Part shown: one piece after another, positions 17,597 through 27,116 of the stretch
Position numbering within the stretch: the first letter of the stretch is position 1
Layout of the letters: every line of letters starts with the position of its first letter
Assembly: GCA_050249955.1 (NCBI GenBank)
Contig: JBFWPN010000009.1
Span: 126,529-190,528 of the forward strand
Direction of reading: 5' to 3'
DNA from: Vicinamibacterales bacterium
GTDB taxonomy: Bacteria > Acidobacteriota > Vicinamibacteria > Vicinamibacterales > CAVVIG01
Length of the DNA: 64,000 bases
Translations under genes and position numbers: made by a program
Notes under the pieces: model-generated
The model's input: the letters and a program-made list of their open reading frames with translations, nothing else
Told to the model about the DNA's origin: nothing
Database searches by the model: none

Positions 17597-18529
17597 TCAC
17601 TTTTTCACGATCGTTGCACCGGCGAGCGACGACAGCGCGCGCGCGTTCACCACGCCGATGCCGCCGACCACGAGCACGGTGCCCGCGAGCAGCCGCCAGT
17701 CGGTCCGCTCACCGAGCACGAGCGAGCCGAGCAGCAGGCCGACGACCGGCATGATGTAGGTGACGAGCGAGGTGCGCGTGGGCCCCCAGGCGTTCATCAG
17801 GGTGAACGACATCAGGTACGCGAGGCAAGAGCCGAGCAGGCCCAGCCACGCCACGGCCAGCCACGCCAGCGGCGACGCGGGCAGCCGCGGCGCCGGCTCG
17901 AACAGCGCGACGCCGGCCGCCAGGTAGAGCTGCGCGAACATCAGCGGCACGGTGGCCTGCACGAGCGGCGACATCCCGCGCAGCGTGCGCCTGGCGTAGG
18001 TCGATGCCCCGGCATAGGAGAGCGTGGCGCCAAGCACCGCGACCTGGCCCCACAGACTGCCGAGCCCATCGCCGAGCCCGCCGCTCATCAGCACCACGAC
18101 GCCCAGGAAGCCGGTGCCGAGGCCCGCCAGCTTCGCCCCGCTGAACGGCTCGTCCTCGAGCCAGACGTGGGCGATCACGGTGGTGAAGAGCGGCTGTGCG
18201 CCATTGAGGATCGACGCCATGCTGGAGGCGATGCGCGTCTCGCCCCACGAGATCAGCAGGAACGGGAGCGCCGTGTTGAAGAGCCCGATGAGGGCACACG
18301 CCACCAGCGTATGACGGTCGCGCGGGAGCGGCGTGCCGCGTACGGCGAGCAGCGCCAGCAGGCCCGCGACGCCGAACAGCACCCGGCACGTCACGAGGAG
18401 CAGCGGCGTGAATCCCTCGCCGCCGTCGCCGAGCGCCACCTTGATCCAGAGGAACGACGAGCCCCAGATGAGGCCGAGCAGGCCGAACATGACCCACTCG
18501 CGGGGCGTGGCCGGATGCGGGTCAGCCAT
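17597..18529 (-). CDS. EamA/DMT family transporter
   Basis: LGLIWGSSFLWIK; about 10 TM helices; LGLLGSCLAY; start reassigned to ATG 18529 (MADPHP). Confidence 0.88.
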   Translation of the reverse strand: MADPHPATPREWVMFGLLGLIWGSSFLWIKVALGDGGEGFTPLLLVTCRVLFGVAGLLALLAVRGTPLPRDRHTLVACALIGLFNTALPFLLISWGETRIASSMASILNGAQPLFTTVIAHVWLEDEPFSGAKLAGLGTGFLGVVVLMSGGLGDGLGSLWGQVAVLGATLSYAGASTYARRTLRGMSPLVQATVPLMFAQLYLAAGVALFEPAPRLPASPLAWLAVAWLGLLGSCLAYLMSFTLMNAWGPTRTSLVTYIMPVVGLLLGSLVLGERTDWRLLAGTVLVVGGIGVVNARALSSLAGATIVKK

Positions 18530-19892
18530 CCAGCCCGACCGCCAGGTCGCCCAGCATCTCGCCCGCAAGTGCCTCGCCCACGCCCGCAAGGTGTGCCTCA
18601 CGCCCCGCATCGCCGGAGCCCGGCCGCGCCGCCTCGGCGTTCCGTCGCTCGTCGACGCATGCGGCGCGCATGGTGGCGAGCAGCCGATCCTGCGCCGTGA
18701 ACCGTGGCTGGCGCGACGCCAGCACCGCCGCGGCACAGAGCACGCGGATCTCGGCGCTCGCGGCCTCGCCGCCCCCGACGAGATCCTGCGCGTCTGCGGC
18801 CGCTTCATCCTGCTGTGCGGCCGTGAATCCGAAGGCGCCCGCGAGGCGCGCGCCGCCCACGGTGATGCCCGGCTCGCCACCCGTGCCGACGAACGCCGCC
18901 CCGATGGCGCGCGCGGATTCCGCGTCCGCCGCCGCGGCACCTGGCGGAAACGCCTCCTCGCACGCCCGGACGAACTCCGCAGACTCAGCCGCGAACCCCA
19001 TGGCTTCGATGACCGCCGCGTTGAACGCCATTCGCGCCGCCAGCGGCGGGTAGCTCGGGTGCGCCGCCACCGCGCCCGTGGCGTCGGTCAGCAGGATGTT
19101 GGCGAGCGCCCAGGCGTAGGCCGGTCCCACCGAGAGGCAGCCGTGGAAGTCGGCGAACAGCTCAGACCCGCGCGCCACCCACGCCTCACGTGCCGCGGAA
19201 TCGGGCACCACGGTCGCAATCCGCCCGGCGATCTGGTCGGTCAGCCCGAAGTCGGCTTCCACCGAGTGCCCCACTTCGTGGCAGATGGAGACGGCATCGG
19301 GCAGGTAGGCGGTCTGGTACCACGGCACCGCAATGACCGGGAAGGGCAGGCGCGAGAGCGCCGACCGGAAGTCCGCATTCCTCAGGAAGGCCTGCGGCAC
19401 CGCGCTCACCTCGAACGCCCGATCGCGCGTCACGGTGAACGGGCTCCAGGTGCTGTTCAGGTACACCAGCGGCGGCGCCTTCGCCACCGGGTCGCTTCCC
19501 GGGTGCGCCAGGTTGCGCACGGGCCGATAGCACTGCCACGCGAGCTCGTCGCCGACGCGCAGGAACGTGCGCAGGCTCCCGTCGAGCCGCTGGGCCAGCT
19601 TGCCCCGGAAGAACTCCCACACCTCGCACCCGGCGAGGATGGCGGCCTCGAGCGTCGCGCCGCGCTGCGCCACGGCGCCCGCGTCGACCGTCCTCGCAAG
19701 GGCCTGGTCCACCAGCCGACGGATGCCGCCCATCAGGCGGTCCACGTCGCGCGTCTGCACGTAATGGATCTGGAACGCGGGGTCGCGGCGCGTGGTCACG
19801 TCCGCGGTCTGGTCGAGCCACGCCTCGAGCGAGGTGGCCAGCACGGCCCGCTTGCGGGTCAGCGCGCGCAGGCGTTCGTCGGTGAGCGCCAC
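18522..19892 (-). CDS. Hypothetical protein with an HExxH zincin-like metallopeptidase motif (gene C of the CHAT/STAND module)
   Basis: ICHEVGH followed by W...SELFADF and HPSYPP...R; no signal peptide; starts 1 nt after the gene B stop. Confidence 0.7.
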   Translation of the reverse strand: MALTDERLRALTRKRAVLATSLEAWLDQTADVTTRRDPAFQIHYVQTRDVDRLMGGIRRLVDQALARTVDAGAVAQRGATLEAAILAGCEVWEFFRGKLAQRLDGSLRTFLRVGDELAWQCYRPVRNLAHPGSDPVAKAPPLVYLNSTWSPFTVTRDRAFEVSAVPQAFLRNADFRSALSRLPFPVIAVPWYQTAYLPDAVSICHEVGHSVEADFGLTDQIAGRIATVVPDSAAREAWVARGSELFADFHGCLSVGPAYAWALANILLTDATGAVAAHPSYPPLAARMAFNAAVIEAMGFAAESAEFVRACEEAFPPGAAAADAESARAIGAAFVGTGGEPGITVGGARLAGAFGFTAAQQDEAAADAQDLVGGGEAASAEIRVLCAAAVLASRQPRFTAQDRLLATMRAACVDERRNAEAARPGSGDAGREAHLAGVGEALAGEMLGDLAVGLDG

Positions 19893-19893
19893 G

Positions 19894-22800
19894 TCACCAC
19901 ACCGGGATCGACGGATCGCTCGCGAAGAGCGCCGACGGTGCCTGCGCTGTCAGTGCCGCCACCGCCTGTGCGAGCGCGGCGGCGTCGTCACCGCCGGTCA
20001 CGCTCCGGATCAGTGCCTGCGCCACCGCGAGTGTGTGGCTGCCGGCCAGTCCGGTGGCCAGCACGCCACGCGTGCGCCCCAGCGCGAAGAGCTGGTGCGC
20101 GAACTGGTTGCGCATGTAGAGCAGCTTCAGGGTCTCGGCGCGCGAGCCGCTGTGCGGCACGTCCAGGATCACGAACGGCCGCTGCTCCGCGCCCAGGGCC
20201 GACTGCAGCATGCGGCTGAGCAGGCCGGGTGTGAGCGCCAGCGTCGTGGGGGTCCCCTGCCCCTCGCTCGGTCCCTCGGTCGCCAGCCGCAGGTCCGACC
20301 CGGTCTGTGCCACCGACAGCGTCAGGTGCACCACGTCCGGCTGGGCCGACGTCAGTCCAGCCGTCAGCGGCGAAGGATCGCCGGGTTCCACCCGCATGCA
20401 GCCCGAGGCCGAACCCTGCCACAGCTTCACCACGTCCACGCCGAACGCGCCATAGCCGGTCCGGTACGATCGCTCGACCTCGTAATTCCGCCCCACGATG
20501 GCGATGCCCCGCCGCGGCAGCATCGCCCGCATGCGCCGGATTGTCGCGGCCGTGACAGCGCCCTGCTCGAGTACCTGGTGCCGTGCGTCGAACTCCGTCA
20601 GCGCGCCGAATGTCTGCGGTCCGGCCACGCCGTCCACGACGACCGGCGTGCCCAGTGCCGTGAGCGCAGCCTGCACCCAGCGCACCGTGTCGGTGGCCGG
20701 CTCGCGGGTGGTGGTCCGCGCCACGAAGGCGAAGCCGCGACCCTCCGTCCCCCACTCCCACGGCAGGCCCGCCATCGCATCGTCGTCGAACCGAAGGAGC
20801 AGCCCCGCGGTGGAAGCGCCGGGCGGTGGTGGCACCACACCCCGGAGCAGCTCACTGGCACGCGCACGTTCGCCCAGCAGCACCTCGAGCGCCTCGGTGG
20901 AGCCCCGGCTGCCGAGCACCTCGATGAGCGCCTTGTGCGGCTTGATCGAGACCTGCCGCATCGTCTCGGGCTGTCCGAGTGGGGTGGTGGCGATGATGAG
21001 CTCGTGCTCGGCGGGATGCCTCACCTCCACGACGTGCGCGCGGAGGTGGAAGGGCGACGAGTACATCGGCTTGTCGTCGATGCGCACCTCGCGCAGGTTG
21101 ACGCGCCCGTCGGGCAGGCCGAGCCGCGTGGCCACACCGAGCGCCTGGCTGCCCCACAGGTTCGCCTGCATCGGGTCGTCCGAGAGGCGCGACTGCAGCG
21201 CCATGAAGCGGCAGGTGAACTGATCCGGTTCCCCGTCCGGCAGGGTCACCTCGGCGAGGGCGGCCGCTGCCGAGGCCGGGTCTGCCTTCTCGATCCACCA
21301 CTCGGCCTGCTCCACGTGCGTGGCGATCACCAGTCCCGGGTAGTCCGCGCATGTCGCGCGCACCGCGGCGAGGTACGCGTGGACCTGTGTGTTGTCCACC
21401 ACCACGTTCAGCAGGCGTGCGGCCACGAGCAGGCGTCGCGCCACGAGCGGCTGGTCGGGCAGGTGCAGCCGCTGCAGCGCTGCCGCCAGCAGCGCGCGCC
21501 CGTGGTCGGGTGCCCCGGCGTATTGCAGCGTGCGTGAGAGCGGGATCGCCCGCAGCACGAAGTCGGGGTCGTCGGCCGCAAGCTCCGGAATCGCGGCGAG
21601 CAGGGCCGGCTGCGGCGGGTTGGACGCACCCGGCGTGCCGGGTTCCCACCGTTCGAACGGGGTCAGCAGGGCGACGCGGGCATCGACCGGGGTGATGGCG
21701 GTGAGCAGGCGGGCGAAGTCGTCGCTCGCCGCCACCGGCTCGAGCCCCCCGGCGAGCGCCTGCGCGAAGGCGAGCGCCCGATCGAACACGCCGGCGTGGA
21801 CCGGCGACTCGGCCCAGACGCGCTTCCACTGCTGGATGGCGCGCTCGCGCGCCGGGTGCCGCGTCATCTCGATGATCGCCATCTGGCCGCGCAGCCAGTT
21901 CGGCCCGCTCGGATCCAGCTTCGAACCCAGCGTCCGCGCCTCGTTGAAGTTCCCGATGATGCGGACGATGAAGTCGAGCCGCTCGATCTCGCAGGCCTGC
22001 GCCGCCACCGTGTTCTGCGCCCGCTCGAAGAGCCGCGTGGCGAGCTGGAAGGCGTCGATGGTGCCCGGGTGGTGCAACAGCGCCAGCCTGGACGCGCGCC
22101 ACAGGGCGTGCTGCGGATCCTCGGACGTGGCGATGGGCGGCGTCATCCGCATCTGGTCCAGGTCGAGGCGGCAGCGCTGGTCCGACGTGAACCGGTGAGC
22201 CACCGCGGGGTCTGGCGCGTGCGACGTGACGTAGCCGAGCCACGCGGGAATGACCGACCAGCGGTGCGTCTGTGCCAGGACGTCGACGAGGCGGCCGGCA
22301 CGCCGGACCATGTCGGTGGCCGATCCGCCGCCGGCGACGGTGGACACCAGCGAGTCCTCGAAGTGACGGAGCGCGCCATCGAGGGCGCCGCGGTCGCGCT
22401 CGATGAGCCCCTGCATGGTGCGGATCATGGCGCGCGTCTGGCCCGTGTCGTGGAGTGCCGACGCGGCGAGCGCGATCGCCTGCTCGTAGGCCGCGTGGGC
22501 CTCCGCAGCCGACCGCCGGGCCACCAGGTTCGCCTTCATGATCAGCAGGCGGACCGCGGACTGGGGCGAGGCGGTGGCGAGGGAGGTGGCGATCAGCGCG
22601 AGCGCCTGCTCGTCGTGCCCCAGGTGGGAGAGCACCTGCGCCTCCACCTCGATGCGTTCGGGCCCGATGGCCGGCCGCCCGAGCCGCGCCTCGATCGTGC
22701 GGATGGCGTCGAGGTGCCCCTCGATCCGGTTCATCAGCGCCTCGCGCCAGTGTGGCGCGTCGGCGTGCTGCCCGCGGTGGATCAGTTCGCCCGACAGGGT

Positions 22801-25011
22801 CTTCGCAAGCTCGAAGTGCGCCTCGGCGACGGTCTCCGGCTCGATGATGTGGGCCGTCAACTGGTGACGCCGCGGCTGCCCGTCGTCGTCCAGGAAGTCG
22901 CTGCCGAGCAGCGACTCGGCCAGCGCCCCGCGTACGTCGGGGAACAGGCTGAAGGTGGACGCCATCATGCGGTGCCAGTGCGTCGTGGCCGCCGAGCCCT
23001 CGGCCTGGAAGTAGTGGAAGAGCGCCTGGATGGCGAGCTGTCCCGCGGCGGCGGCGCGCTCGCGCACGGAGCGGTCGAGGGCGGCCACGGCCTCGACCGT
23101 GCCGGCGTCGATGCGCTGCTGGACGTACAGCGCCGGGTCCATGAGGTCGGGGTCGATGCGCCGCTCGAACCAGGCCGCGGCCTCGCGGTGCACCTCGGCG
23201 TAGACCGGCTGGCTCTGGAGCAGGTAGCGCATCGGCACCACCAGTTCCGGCTGCAGGCGCGGCAGGTCTCCTTCGAGGCTGATCCAGCTCGAGGCGCTGG
23301 CGTACTTGCGCAGTTCGGTCCAGAGGCGATCGGGATCGAACGTGCCGGGGCAGGGCGTCCAGCTCCGGCTGCGCCGGACCAGCTCGGCCCCGGGCGGCAG
23401 GTTCTCGTGGGGCCGGTCGCGCTGCGGCGACGCGGCCTCGCGGCGGACGTGCGGCAGCAGCACGTCGTGCAGGAAGTCGCGCGTGAGCTGGTTGGGCACC
23501 ACCGCGTAGCGCAACACCCACTGCAGCTCGCAGTCGGGCAACCGCTCGATGATGCGCTCGATCAGGTACTGCACGTCGGCGTGGCCGAGCTCGGAAAGAT
23601 CCTGCAGCGTGAAGCGGCCACCGGCACCCACGCGATCCGCGAACAGCGTGAGCTTGAACGGGTTCCCGTGCGCCGGCCGTCCCGCGCGGCGCGCGCGGAA
23701 CGCCGGCTTCAGCCGGCGGATCCGGGTGAGGTACTCGATCGCCTCGGGTCCCGTGAGTTCGCCCACCGTGATGGTGGTCATGCCACGGCGCGTGCGCGGC
23801 ATCGACGTCCAGGGACGGAAGTCCTGGCGGGTCCGGATGTCGTGCCGGCCGGCCATGATCACCTTCAGCCCGGGACAGGCCTCGTGGACCCTCTCGAGCA
23901 GGCGCAGCGCCGAGAGCCACTCCTGCGGCTTGTGCAGGACCATCTCCTCGACCGTGTCCAGTACCAGCAGGGCCGGCATGCGCGCGAGCTGCCGGCAGAA
24001 CGCCTTCTCGATCTCCGCGGCCTCGTTCTCGCTCAGGCTCAGTGTCACCTGCGCGCTGGCCCGGACGGGCGAGGGTTCGAGGGCCGGCAGGTAGCGGCTG
24101 TGATCGAGCAGGAAGCTGCGGAACAGGCTCGCGCCCACCCCCTGTTCCACCTGCCGATCCAGCTGGTCGGCCGCGTGGACCAGCAGCAGGCTGGGGGCCT
24201 CGGCAATGGTGGCGCGGTTCACCCGGTCGAAGTCGATGCGGGCCACGGGCCAGCGCACACCGCGCCCGCGGCCGGCGACGAGCAGGCGACGCGAGATGTA
24301 CCAGCGCAGGAACGCCGTCTTGCCGAAGCCGCCCTTCGCGGCGATCTGCATGAGCCACCTGCTGCTCGCGAGGAAGGCGTCGGCCGACGCCGTCACCTTC
24401 CGGCGTTCGAGGTAGTGGCGCGACCGCGTCCAGTCGTCCACGAAGAGCACCCGGCTCCGGAGGTACTGTTCGCGGTCCTGGAGGAAGCGGAACAGCTCGG
24501 GCGCAAACTGCGAGAGCAGCTCCGAGCGGTTGCGCAGGATGCGGAGCAGGCCGTCGCAGGCCGAGAGGTCGCCGGCGCGGTCGGCCGCGTCGTAGAGCGC
24601 CTTCGCGAAGCCGAGTGCGTCGCGCGGGCTCGCGAAGAGCATCTGCGAGAGCTGGTCGAGCGGCGCCCCGTCCTCGTAGTAGACCCACATCCGCCGGCTG
24701 AAGTCGCGGAGTCCGTCCGGGTCCGACTCCCAGGCCGAGAGGAGGAGCGATCGCGACTCCCCGCGCACGTAGTAGGCCGTGCTGCTGCCGGGCACGGGCA
24801 CCATCTCGGGCAGTTCGGTCAGCGAGGTGAACGTGAAGCGGCGCCCCTCGGGTACGTCTTCGGCGAGCACGGTGGTGAACAGCGCCTCGTCCACCTCGCG
24901 CAGCAGGGCGCACTTGCGGAGGATCACCTCCTGCCAGGCCTGGCGCGTGACGGCACCCGTGCTGTTCAGCAGCTCGCGCAGCGAGCGCTTGGGCGTGCCT
25001 GGGGCGGTCAT
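19894..25011 (-). CDS. 1705-aa STAND-type NTPase with helical/TPR-like repeats and a C-terminal degenerate CHAT domain carrying a peptidoglycan-binding insertion (gene B)
   Basis: Walker A AKGGFGKT, Walker B LLVLDTVEE, IMAGR, GNPF (GxP), long helical repeats, LPWEW, VRWVQAAL...VDGVAGPQT. Start reassigned to ATG 25011 (ATGA overlap with gene A). Confidence 0.8.
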   Translation of the reverse strand: MTAPGTPKRSLRELLNSTGAVTRQAWQEVILRKCALLREVDEALFTTVLAEDVPEGRRFTFTSLTELPEMVPVPGSSTAYYVRGESRSLLLSAWESDPDGLRDFSRRMWVYYEDGAPLDQLSQMLFASPRDALGFAKALYDAADRAGDLSACDGLLRILRNRSELLSQFAPELFRFLQDREQYLRSRVLFVDDWTRSRHYLERRKVTASADAFLASSRWLMQIAAKGGFGKTAFLRWYISRRLLVAGRGRGVRWPVARIDFDRVNRATIAEAPSLLLVHAADQLDRQVEQGVGASLFRSFLLDHSRYLPALEPSPVRASAQVTLSLSENEAAEIEKAFCRQLARMPALLVLDTVEEMVLHKPQEWLSALRLLERVHEACPGLKVIMAGRHDIRTRQDFRPWTSMPRTRRGMTTITVGELTGPEAIEYLTRIRRLKPAFRARRAGRPAHGNPFKLTLFADRVGAGGRFTLQDLSELGHADVQYLIERIIERLPDCELQWVLRYAVVPNQLTRDFLHDVLLPHVRREAASPQRDRPHENLPPGAELVRRSRSWTPCPGTFDPDRLWTELRKYASASSWISLEGDLPRLQPELVVPMRYLLQSQPVYAEVHREAAAWFERRIDPDLMDPALYVQQRIDAGTVEAVAALDRSVRERAAAAGQLAIQALFHYFQAEGSAATTHWHRMMASTFSLFPDVRGALAESLLGSDFLDDDGQPRRHQLTAHIIEPETVAEAHFELAKTLSGELIHRGQHADAPHWREALMNRIEGHLDAIRTIEARLGRPAIGPERIEVEAQVLSHLGHDEQALALIATSLATASPQSAVRLLIMKANLVARRSAAEAHAAYEQAIALAASALHDTGQTRAMIRTMQGLIERDRGALDGALRHFEDSLVSTVAGGGSATDMVRRAGRLVDVLAQTHRWSVIPAWLGYVTSHAPDPAVAHRFTSDQRCRLDLDQMRMTPPIATSEDPQHALWRASRLALLHHPGTIDAFQLATRLFERAQNTVAAQACEIERLDFIVRIIGNFNEARTLGSKLDPSGPNWLRGQMAIIEMTRHPARERAIQQWKRVWAESPVHAGVFDRALAFAQALAGGLEPVAASDDFARLLTAITPVDARVALLTPFERWEPGTPGASNPPQPALLAAIPELAADDPDFVLRAIPLSRTLQYAGAPDHGRALLAAALQRLHLPDQPLVARRLLVAARLLNVVVDNTQVHAYLAAVRATCADYPGLVIATHVEQAEWWIEKADPASAAAALAEVTLPDGEPDQFTCRFMALQSRLSDDPMQANLWGSQALGVATRLGLPDGRVNLREVRIDDKPMYSSPFHLRAHVVEVRHPAEHELIIATTPLGQPETMRQVSIKPHKALIEVLGSRGSTEALEVLLGERARASELLRGVVPPPPGASTAGLLLRFDDDAMAGLPWEWGTEGRGFAFVARTTTREPATDTVRWVQAALTALGTPVVVDGVAGPQTFGALTEFDARHQVLEQGAVTAATIRRMRAMLPRRGIAIVGRNYEVERSYRTGYGAFGVDVVKLWQGSASGCMRVEPGDPSPLTAGLTSAQPDVVHLTLSVAQTGSDLRLATEGPSEGQGTPTTLALTPGLLSRMLQSALGAEQRPFVILDVPHSGSRAETLKLLYMRNQFAHQLFALGRTRGVLATGLAGSHTLAVAQALIRSVTGGDDAAALAQAVAALTAQAPSALFASDPSIPVW

Positions 25012-27116
25012 GGCCGCTTCGCCCTCACCTTGATCCAGCAATTGCGCCACAGGGCGTCGGTGTACTCCCGGAGTTCGGCGCCGGTCAGCGCCTCCTGGGC
25101 ATACTCGGCCAGCTCGCGCGTCATCTGCGCCAGCATCGCCTCGGCGTAGGGCTGCACCTTGTCGGCTTCCTTCTTCAGCCGGATGCGGAAGAGCTCCTCG
25201 AGCAGTTCCAGCGAGTCGGTCGCGGCGAAGTACTCCATCGGCACGTGCCCGTAGTCGACCGGGAGCGGGTCGAGGCCGTAGTCCCGTCGCCGATCCGAAC
25301 GGATGGCCAGCAGCAGCCGGACGCGGCCGTTGCCCCGCGCGATGAGCGGGTTGATCCAGTGCTCGCGCAGCAGGGCGAACTGATCGGCGCTGAGGCCGCG
25401 ATCGCCGGCCTCGAGCTGGTCGAACACCAGGACGAGCGGCTCGTTGCCGGGTGGCCGCAGCGCGTCGTGGAAGGCCTGGCACACGCGCCGCTCGAACTCC
25501 GGCGCGACCGCCGGGCTGTTCTTCAGCGCAGACAGCGGTCCGGCCGTGTCCGGTTCGTCGGCGGCCGCCTGGCCGGTCGGGTCGATGCGGCCCTTCGCCA
25601 GGTGCGAGAGGCGCCAGTTGAACGACGGATCCAGCAGCGATCCCAGCGGATCCTGCACGCCCTGCCGGCGTGCATTCCCGTCGCGCAGCGCCCGCAGCAC
25701 CTCGAGCCAGTCCGCACAGCCGCCAAGCTCCACGTACCGGACCGTGTGACGGCGGCGGTGGAACAGGTCCATGGTCCAGCAGAGCAGCGTACTCTTGCCG
25801 ATCTCCGCCGCCCCCTGTACCACGATGACGTTGTGCTGATCGTCCACGGCCCGCACGAGCCGGCGCCGCTCCTCGTACCGGTCCACGAAGGTCTCGAGCC
25901 GCTCGTGGACGAAGGGCGGTGCGTCGATGTCGAGCACCGCCTCGTGCCGCAGGATCTGGTCGGGCGGTGCCGCCAGCGAGAGCACCGGCAGGTACGGCTC
26001 CCGGCCGTCCTTGCCGCCTGCCACGTCGCGCGCGATCCTCGCCCGGCCCCGCGCGCAGGCCACGTCGATCGGCACCCCCTCGAGCAGCGCCCCATAGAAC
26101 TCACCGGCGCACAGCGCCGCTGCACTGCCGCGCACGTCGGCCTGCATGGCCACCACGCCGAGCACGCCGCGGCCGAACAGCGCATCGACGATCGTGCGCT
26201 GGCGCGAGATGTCGGCTGCCGACGCCTCCTCCCACGTCGCCACACCCTGGCTCCGGCAGGCATTCAGGTAGACGACGTCCGGGATCCAGCTCCGGGTGCC
26301 GAGGTCGAGCCTGATGTCGTCCGGCCCCCATGTCACGTTCGCCTTGCGCACCTCCGCGTCGTAGATTTGCAGGTCGGTGCCGGTGCCGTGCCCGATGAAG
26401 TGCAGGATGTGCGGCATGAACAGGCCGAGCCGCTCGACCAGCCGTTCACGGCTGGGATGCCGGAGCACGTCCACGTCGTAGACCCGATCCATCGGCCGGA
26501 GCGCCCGCTTGATCGCCCGTACTTCCTCGTCGGCACCGATGGCCTCCGGGTTGTCCGCCGCGACCACCACCAGCACGCGCACCTGCAGTTCGGGGTCGCT
26601 CACGCGACGCCGGGCCGGCACCACCACGAAGCGGGCCACCGGCGCATCGTCCTGAAGGAAGAGCGGGCCGCCGATACGGGCCACTTCCCACGGCACCGCG
26701 AGCAGGGCGGGGTCGTCGACCACCAGGAACAGCCGGTAGCCCGGTTGTGCCTGGATGGACGTCAGCTGGTCGGGCGTGGGGTTCGGGCTGCGGAGGATGC
26801 GCGCGCGCCGCCGCGCCCACTCGGCCTGGTCCTGCTGGGCCGCCGCCATCCGGTCGGTCCAGGTGGTCCCGATCGCACCGGGCATCAGGAGTGCCCCGAG
26901 CTGCGTGGCCAGACGATCCAGGTCGCGGATGCGGCCCGACTGTGTCAGCAGGAGCCGGCGCAGATCGTCGAGGAGGGCCTGCTGGTCCGGGCTGAAGGGC
27001 GGCTGCGCCACCGCGGCGAGCACGGCGCCGGGAGCGGCGGGATCGCCCTCCCGCAGCTCGTACAGCCAGCCTGGCTGGTCCGGTGCCGGCGTCAGGCGAA
27101 GCGTCAGGGCCTGCAT
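25008..27116 (-). CDS. CHAT (caspase-like) protease fused to a STAND-type NTPase (gene A, 702 aa)
   Basis: LLAVPWE, ILHFIGHG (catalytic His), VYLNACRS (catalytic Cys), VAMQ..V, FYGAL; FVDRYEE, Walker A GAAEIGKS, Walker B LVLVFDQLE. Confidence 0.88.
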   Translation of the reverse strand: MQALTLRLTPAPDQPGWLYELREGDPAAPGAVLAAVAQPPFSPDQQALLDDLRRLLLTQSGRIRDLDRLATQLGALLMPGAIGTTWTDRMAAAQQDQAEWARRRARILRSPNPTPDQLTSIQAQPGYRLFLVVDDPALLAVPWEVARIGGPLFLQDDAPVARFVVVPARRRVSDPELQVRVLVVVAADNPEAIGADEEVRAIKRALRPMDRVYDVDVLRHPSRERLVERLGLFMPHILHFIGHGTGTDLQIYDAEVRKANVTWGPDDIRLDLGTRSWIPDVVYLNACRSQGVATWEEASAADISRQRTIVDALFGRGVLGVVAMQADVRGSAAALCAGEFYGALLEGVPIDVACARGRARIARDVAGGKDGREPYLPVLSLAAPPDQILRHEAVLDIDAPPFVHERLETFVDRYEERRRLVRAVDDQHNVIVVQGAAEIGKSTLLCWTMDLFHRRRHTVRYVELGGCADWLEVLRALRDGNARRQGVQDPLGSLLDPSFNWRLSHLAKGRIDPTGQAAADEPDTAGPLSALKNSPAVAPEFERRVCQAFHDALRPPGNEPLVLVFDQLEAGDRGLSADQFALLREHWINPLIARGNGRVRLLLAIRSDRRRDYGLDPLPVDYGHVPMEYFAATDSLELLEELFRIRLKKEADKVQPYAEAMLAQMTRELAEYAQEALTGAELREYTDALWRNCWIKVRAKRP

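Follow-up and report, generated by a model that had tools for sequence, protein, structure and literature searches.

A STAND module divided between two adjacent genes is predicted to link a CHAT protease to its sensor in a widespread bacterial operon

The window analyzed here, i.e., the whole stretch of 64,000 nucleotides spanning positions 126,529 to 190,528 of contig JBFWPN010000009.1 of a Vicinamibacterales bacterium (Acidobacteriota), harbors a run of three genes on the minus strand, arranged in the order A, B, C. Gene A (27116..25008; 702 amino acids) encodes a CHAT caspase-like protease followed by a degenerate nucleotide-binding domain (NBD) of the STAND type and by a helical domain (HD), with no winged helix or sensor; gene B (25011..19894; 1705 amino acids) encodes an extra winged helix-arm module, an intact STAND ATPase, a second winged helix-arm, helical repeats and a protease-dead CHAT domain; gene C (19892..18522; 456 amino acids) encodes a protein of the HExxH...E zinc-peptidase type, a candidate zymogen. 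The series NBD-HD-winged-helix domain (WHD) on one chain is the hallmark of STAND/NLR proteins (Lisa et al., PMC6468293). In the operon described here, the module known as NOD (nucleotide-binding oligomerization domain) appears to be split between A and B: on balance, we consider that the two are separate proteins, that B likely docks A by way of the split module and would cluster the A protease upon sensing, and that A in turn would cut latent effectors. As far as searched, this is a real, widespread and undescribed system, representing a variant of the STAND-caspase conflict systems.

The CHAT domain of A (residues 121-364; 26025..26756, minus strand) is matched by PF12770 (E = 1.3e-13) and carries His243 and Cys287; the same family matches 49/49 members of the A family, and the dyad is kept in all the 48 other A sequences. 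The sole NCBIfam match of A is the cell-division CHAT protein HetF, and it is a weak one (E = 1e-4, far below the cut-off). The STAND NBD of A (residues 410 to about 625; 25242..25889, minus strand) was placed by column counts and by an AAA_16 match (E = 4.2e-7, below the curated cut-off), which recurs at E ≤ 0.01 in 35 of the 49 members; hhalign relates it to the NBD of B with a probability of 95.8%. The Walker, sensor-I and GxP motifs are the established landmarks of STAND proteins. The Walker A motif (G435-S442) is retained in A, and its Walker B residue (D566) is devoid of the T-x-E that B has; among 70 homologues, the Walker A Gly is present in 70, the Lys in 65 and the Walker B Asp in 66, and neither a conserved second Walker B acid nor a sensor-I Arg is found in the A columns. 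The His/Cys dyad of A is, on these alignments, intact and its ATPase motifs are eroded, and nucleotide binding by A is probably not followed by a regulated cycle of hydrolysis; given its degenerate switch, A would more likely serve as an adaptor than function as another ATPase next to B. The profile of A prefers the NBDs of B among its non-A matches, but the searched set was rich in B sequences.

The first-pass annotation had noted that A ends about 100 residues after its LLLAIR strand, and this holds: the protein ends 96 residues past LLLAIR (601-606) with no winged helix, the comparison of the A profile with a WHD profile giving a probability of only 0.9%. What follows the NBD is a helical domain (residues 630-702; 25011..25229, minus strand), recognized from the length after Walker B and from the list of predicted interface residues. 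In 71 sequences, the distance between the end of A and its Walker B has a median of 123 residues (111-139), and in B the WHD starts 127-163 residues past its own Walker B; this places the break between the HD and the WHD. The end point is shared by seven A homologues (647-713 amino acids); an eighth one (503 amino acids) stops earlier.

The part missing from A is located at the beginning of B, where a winged helix (residues 8-96; 24724..24990, minus strand), recognized by profile and structure comparison, is followed by arm helices (residues 98-197; 24421..24720, minus strand), one long helix of which runs into B's own NBD. The peptides on which the first-pass annotation had based a resemblance between the first 190 residues of B and its post-ATPase segment were located at residues 29-113 and 499-616. 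The resemblance itself is not seen when the two sequences are compared singly (an equal or higher score was reached by 86 of 500 shuffles) or with profiles of 15 sequences (probability 4.6%, not significant), and it emerges with deep profiles of 80 and 77 rows, where B1-190 and B470-700 are aligned over 129 columns with a probability of 53% and an E-value of 1.3e-4, against 0.5-0.9% for four control profile pairs. In the AlphaFold model of B1-700 (pLDDT 88.9, pTM 0.84), both segments have a helix-helix-helix-hairpin-helix order, with four helices at residues 8-19, 25-35, 42-52 and 61-65, then a hairpin (70-82) and a last helix (84-96), an arrangement repeated at 478-599.

Folded alone, B1-200 (pLDDT 91.7) matches the post-ATPase part of STAND proteins. 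The best match, first out of 48,161 chains, is MalT (8bob 240-417; Z 11.7, root-mean-square deviation (rmsd) 6.2, 162 aligned residues), and the third is PH0952 (6mfv 281-519; Z 8.8, rmsd 8.8), whose WHD and arm correspond to residues 317-393 and 394-496, respectively (PMC6468293); further matches are CED-4 384-543 (Z 7.3, rmsd 4.0) and Apaf-1 346-555 (Z 6.8). For a protein made of helices, such Z values are moderate, but the MalT alignment takes in the hairpin, and it is mainly the STAND matches that span the winged helix as well as the arm. The ten top Foldseek matches include Avs3, MalT, PH0952, NAIP5 and Apaf-1, all with E ≥ 0.05, and a PDB sequence search with the profile of the B N-terminus returned nothing meaningful. 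The wing-end His of the STAND WHD contacts ADP (PMC6468293), and the N-terminal module has no conserved wing His, the five residues most often seen at its columns 81-86 not including His. Taken as a whole, sequence profiles and models identify the B N-terminus as a STAND winged-helix and arm module. The idea that B supplies the winged-helix/helical part missing from A is thus retained for the winged helix and the arm, and not for the helical domain, which A keeps.

The same organization was disclosed in a large number of genomes. The genome loci considered are the best 80 of 91 stretches containing a B relative; they were found by a motif lying inside B, so that an A-B fusion could have surfaced. 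A is located upstream of B in 77/80 of them (the contigs of the other three start inside B), the N-terminal module of B is present in 79/80, and C follows in 72/80; in metagenomes, 40 of 48 loci hold both A and the B module. Fused A-B homologues were searched for and none was found, neither in the 77 genome loci nor in the 40 metagenome loci holding both genes, which are separate in 117/117 cases. In these 117 junctions, the nearest B start overlaps the end of A by four nucleotides in 71 cases and by one nucleotide in 16, lies within 30 nucleotides in 29 and further away in one. In the window, the stop codon of A and the start codon of B share the ATGA overlap at 25008..25011 (minus strand), which marks the split point and likely couples the translation of A and B. 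The module is present in all fourteen B homologues, and a profile of B1-200 retrieved 1207 proteins at E ≤ 0.001, the match starting within the first 66 residues in all the 150 listed; it was not found in any of 28 longer A-like proteins, which is weak evidence. In a quick tree of 22 A/B pairs and 12 other STANDs, the A sequences form one clade (98) and the B sequences another (99), with subgroups roughly mirrored between the two over at least eight phyla; the same tree neither supports nor excludes that the A and B NBDs are sisters. The fission of a tandem double-STAND protein, which had been put forward as an alternative to a heteromer, is better regarded as a scenario for its origin; no fused form was found among the examined loci.

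In order to model the complex that the first-pass annotation had suggested, A395-702 was predicted together with B1-200. The three runs scored 0.62, 0.77 and 0.67 (median 0.67), against 0.43, 0 and 0 for three controls; the complex passes the mark of the tool, which 116 of 157 solved pairs attain, as do 2 of 215 mismatched ones, and which is roughly applicable here; at least 57% of the contacts agree between runs, and the partner pLDDT is at least 81. A first predicted contact places the helical domain of A on the first WHD helix (A668-692/B6-17); a second one places the wing and the next helix (B68-87) on the P-loop and the ends of strands 2 and 3 (A437-438, 463-469 and 567-579); in a third one, the arm (B146-161) is near the insertion helix (A481-483). 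On our own mapping of the domains, these contacts parallel those of resting PH0952 (PMC6468293), and it is quite probable that A395-702 and B1-200 really interact, assembling with the contacts of a resting STAND. The passing score indicates likeness to a closed NOD rather than binding.

As for the possible substrates, C is the only candidate effector in the window. Its residues H205, E206, H209 and E244 (HExxH and the downstream Glu) are present in 72/72 sequences; Arg417, about 30 residues short of the C-terminus, is found in 65 of 68; its distance to the end is mostly 23-47 residues, and a Gly lies two residues before it in 53. No Pfam family matches C above an E-value of 0.001, and no Pfam peptidase was found in 69 members; there are weak leads to M48, M56 and U49, with Atlas TM scores of 0.28-0.36 (below its bar) and a feature score of 0.77. 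PF10463 (Lit/U49) matches 0/61 genomes and 0/14 controls, and is thus uninformative for C; a PDB sequence search with the C profile gave nothing meaningful. In two Streptomyces loci (L039:9590-16009 and L049:9656-16042), B and C are fused in one reading frame, which suggests that C acts at the complex. A C-terminal GrpB domain is fused to C in Archangium minus (L025:14995-16983). The L086 group and L093 are without C, and further CHAT genes, with Clp_N, alpha/beta-hydrolase or response-regulator domains, lie near several loci (loci concerned by these two remarks: L086, L088, L090, L092, L094, L095, L093, L074, L056 and L025).

The clustering of 2646 neighboring open reading frames (ORFs) from 128 loci revealed other genes next to the operon. 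A gene for a gasdermin-like protein of about 275 amino acids lies directly upstream of A in 27/128 loci, mostly of Streptomyces (for instance L065:6997-7827, plus strand, and 26 others, among them L049 and L132); a gene for a small two-helix membrane protein matching no family occupies this candidate effector slot upstream of A in 10/128 (L071:7470-7982 and nine others); a metallophosphoesterase gene is a recurrent partner in 11/128; a trypsin gene is located directly downstream of C in 9/128. The gasdermin-like proteins have a conserved PGRGA about 40 residues from the end, and an Arg-Gly motif lies 26-58 residues from the end in 24 of the 27; the two-helix membrane proteins have RGARP about 30 residues from the end, and an Arg motif lies 24-42 residues from the end in 8 of the 10. 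The background frequency of an RG motif within the last 60 residues is 16%. An Arg precedes IVGG in 7 of the 9 trypsins adjacent to C (counted by eye, three being identical at that site), and no shared site was found in the phosphoesterases. The presence of a terminal Arg site in three unrelated families suggests that it is a substrate motif of A.

The gasdermin-like protein has an Atlas feature match of 0.97 (215/256 shared) to a cluster that is 12% PF26164 (Bact_GSDM), a family absent from the Pfam copy used for the scans, and an Atlas recognition value of 1936, below the bar of 2300. Its size (about 270 amino acids), its protease neighbor and its short C-terminal tail after X-Gly are those of bacterial gasdermins. 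Homologue searches returned 0/1 (the genome that the window belongs to), 1/5, 0/251 and 4/401, with no bridge to a solved gasdermin. It is possible that these Streptomyces upstream genes represent a new gasdermin clade.

On the basis of these data, the following mechanism may be proposed. The repeat region of B would bind the trigger and B would oligomerize; as its N-terminal module occupies the usual effector position of a STAND, the reassembled A/B unit would be the tether, taking over the part of a CARD-CARD link. The clustered CHAT domains of A would then become active, possibly by pairing with the dead CHAT of B, and A would cut after Arg, removing a C-terminal tail of 25-45 residues from C; where present, the gasdermin-like or two-helix membrane proteins would lose their tail through the same cut, and the cell would die or arrest. 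In its broadest form, which we put forward only tentatively, the operon would be an inflammasome whose sensor-caspase adaptor is a NOD split over two genes, used instead of death-domain links, and which drives exchangeable Arg-cleaved effectors, including a so far undescribed gasdermin clade of Streptomyces, with C as a zinc-peptidase zymogen.

Several observations weigh against this proposal. The passing score of the complex may reflect likeness to solved NOD modules, since a fold divided into halves is apt to pass. In 106 A/B pairs (Neff 63), covariation is not enriched at the interface (none of the 30 strongest pairs lies there, and 15 of the 500 strongest do, where 11.5 would be expected), and the A interface columns are less conserved than the other A columns (0.33 versus 0.46); moreover, the identity matrix of A correlates with that of B1-200 (0.51) no better than with that of the inner winged helix of B (0.54). 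The A-B heteromer is upheld by the predicted complex and obtains no support from covariation, and the notion that the split would force it remains at the stage of a prediction. As for the effectors, C is missing despite long downstream sequence in L043, L055, L086, L107 and L123; the sequences in which the Arg motifs were counted are kin, so that the counts lack independence; the site mapped in Runella is Leu-Gly, the CHAT protease cutting after Leu (Johnson et al., 10.1101/2021.06.07.447441), whereas the candidate site here is Arg-Gly. Five other scans of the gasdermin-like protein, PDB sequence search included, found no gasdermin, so that its identity is to be taken as a lead. As for the immune role, the PADLOC scan of 104 neighboring ORFs, from 20 of 26 chosen loci, gave no sign of defence islands, matching 8 of them, mostly through generic domains and with no control set; none of 72 B1-700 sequences is matched by PADLOC, and the neighbors of the operon in the window are genes for an EamA transporter and a META-domain protein. 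An immune role is proposed on the grounds of the effector slot, the patchy spread and the analogy with known systems, and not of defence islands.

The geometry of the predicted complex is the autoinhibited one, and it would suit a latch, in which the N-terminal winged helix and arm of B hold A shut until the switch of B frees it and the A NBDs self-assemble, activating the protease on their own. A keeps a P-loop for nucleotide, and with no covalent link between the two chains, opening would plausibly release A. We nevertheless regard a latch as unlikely: A is without the sensor-I Arg and the second Walker B acid and the extra wing of B without the ADP-clamping His, so that the exchange cycle looks eroded; the module lies at the N-terminal effector position of B; and structure predictors favor closed forms. 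Somewhat less likely still is that the heteromer is real and works as a developmental or envelope-stress protease rather than in immunity, C being a regulated peptidase with a host target. This would agree with the lack of defence-island enrichment and of any PADLOC family, with the peptidoglycan-binding-type insert of B and with the weak HetF match of A, but it does not account for gasdermin-like, membrane and phosphoesterase genes swapping in one slot, nor for a distribution that is patchy over eight phyla (full-length A was not found in 40 relatives of this genome, one of which has a CHAT-only match).

By a narrow step the less probable of these two is followed by another explanation, according to which the extra module packs on the NBD of its own or of a neighboring B and A is recruited otherwise, for instance by the dead CHAT of B, its short NBD having no need of a winged helix. 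The missing covariation signal, the compact B1-700 model (with the pTM given above) and the potential of the pseudo-CHAT to bind A speak in its favor; nevertheless, B already has a winged helix and arm of its own, the end of A coincides with the boundary of the helical domain in each of the 71 aligned copies, the A/B complex passes its controls, and in the examined loci the extra module is always accompanied by an upstream A where the contig permits. Finally, an artefact or pseudogene, i.e., one long gene broken by a frameshift, as the adjacency of A and B in different frames might suggest, is very improbable, since the break is the same in 117/117 loci (87 of which have the four- or one-nucleotide overlaps), the NBDs of A and those of B fall into distinct clades that roughly mirror each other, and the junction is bridged without insertions or deletions, with 0-2 substitutions, by one contig in each of 4/4 DNA runs from four studies. 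An assembly-error frameshift, the possibility for which a check of reads at the junction had been advised, was rejected on the same grounds. One of the bridging contigs (X3) is identical in sequence and may be near the source of this DNA; the RNA runs gave only short contigs on A and B, none of which spans the junction.

The docking of A on B through the split module, which we favor, recalls several known systems. The Lysobacter gasdermin system (Wein et al., PMC10312443) consists of a STAND sensor, a protease and exchangeable effectors, gasdermin included; it is alike in having separate genes for sensor and protease, exchangeable effectors and an inflammasome logic, and related operons are said there to contain trypsin fusions. 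Its proteases carry CARD-like domains (PMC10312443), whereas in A/B the CHAT protease would be linked through the split between NBD-HD and WHD-arm. The dead CHAT and the HExxH protein are additions of the A/B/C operon with respect to it. The proteases of the Lysobacter system are reportedly trypsin-like. In the gasdermin-CHAT operons (10.1101/2021.06.07.447441), a CHAT protease likewise lies beside a protein of about 270 amino acids with a short tail after X-Gly; there, the sensor/NACHT part is fused to the protease, whereas here it is split. The protease-Avs proteins EACC1-KrAvs12 and Pepco-SsAvs4 (Evans et al., PMC12642450; Lee et al., PMC13581612) carry a protease where a STAND has its N-terminal effector, and a latent, cleavage-activated effector is encoded directly upstream; they are single polypeptides with one whole NOD, whereas A/B has two NODs, one of them split. 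Gasdermin (bGSDM) and metallophosphoesterase (MPE) are listed among the protease-associated effector domains (PMC12642450). In A/B the effector is on a separate gene, unlike in the single-chain Avs, and no Avs match was obtained with PADLOC 2023, the newer Avs families being outside that library.

The nSTAND2 pair (Kaur et al. 2021, PMC8195603) also comprises two STAND genes, one active and the other eroded and fused to an effector, and a heteromer has been proposed for it; only this logic is shared, its NTPases being of another family, close to CR-ATPase/DAP3, and its effectors GT4 or HEPN, and the accessible text makes no mention of a relocated winged helix, of CHAT or of a third gene. No nSTAND2, GT4 or HEPN Pfam family was found among 49 A and 72 B members, the effector here being CHAT. 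In the resting NODs of MalT, PH0952 and Apaf-1, the NBD-HD-WHD-arm order and the contacts are those of the A/B model, but all the parts belong to one chain (PMC6468293), while in A/B the HD and the WHD are encoded separately. It is likely that the operon works like the Lysobacter NLR-protease-gasdermin and protease-Avs modules, being a member of neither by the features compared. No description of a gene-split NOD or of the A/B/C operon was found in the openly accessible literature; four B homologues (five accessions) and the term "CHAT" are absent from seven supplements of PMC13581612, and A or B may be among the 589 clades of that study.

A natural split at the HD/WHD hinge, unfused in all the examined loci across eight phyla, would show that this module can act as a docking device between chains, and the passage from closed to open could then be followed simply as a binding equilibrium. 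The operon would also offer a testable sensor-protease-effector pathway, with candidate cleavage sites, in Streptomyces, myxobacteria and Acidobacteriota.

With regard to the surroundings of the operon, which in the window has no fourth gene, the EamA transporter gene follows it and the META-domain gene diverges from it; the GC content is flat over the region (0.70-0.73), no match to a sigma-70 promoter was found upstream of A, and a tblastn search found no paralogue in the genome.

The remaining part of B is that of a STAND protein, with the NBD motifs, an HD with GxP and then a WHD and arm on one chain. The NBD and helical domain (residues 198-474; 23590..24420, minus strand) have fold matches to CED-4, MalT, Apaf-1 and Cdc6/ORC; G228, G230, K231, D352, T353, E355, R389 and P451 are invariant, the GxGK, the Walker B D-T-x-E, the sensor-I Arg and the GxP Pro being kept in 71/71 homologues, and the ATPase motifs are, by alignment, intact. 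In three near-identical metagenome contigs (L096, L100 and L101; around L096:7810), a frameshift interrupts B immediately past Walker A, which would yield a free winged helix-arm protein and may represent a broken gene or a shared error. B's own winged helix and arm (residues 478-700; 22912..23580, minus strand) were delimited by the model and the alignment columns; the inner wing-end His is present in 60/71 homologues and is replaced by Gln587 in the window copy. The following variable helical region (residues ~700-1330; 21022..22911, minus strand) shows low conservation and is likely a TPR-like sensor, TPR names having been given by the sources to 3/15 B matches.

The C-terminal pseudo-CHAT of B (19897..20874, minus strand) is related to the CHAT of A by hhalign (probability 87%, E = 3.8e-6); it reads VVHLTLSV and VILDVP where A has ILHFIGHG and VYLNAC, so that the catalytic His and Cys are lost and the domain is, judging from these columns, protease-dead. 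It contains a peptidoglycan-binding-type insert (residues 1441-1494; 20530..20691, minus strand; PF09374/PF01471 just below the cut-off), which sits in a protein without predicted membrane helix and is absent from some homologues. In L123 (L123:5544-14594), a locus without C, the addition of a Peptidase_C14 caspase domain and of DUF7379 brings B to about 3000 codons. A loop of the pseudo-CHAT (residues 1513-1520) is often Arg-Gly/Ser, with Arg in 43/71 sequences at one column, and might be a cut site of A.

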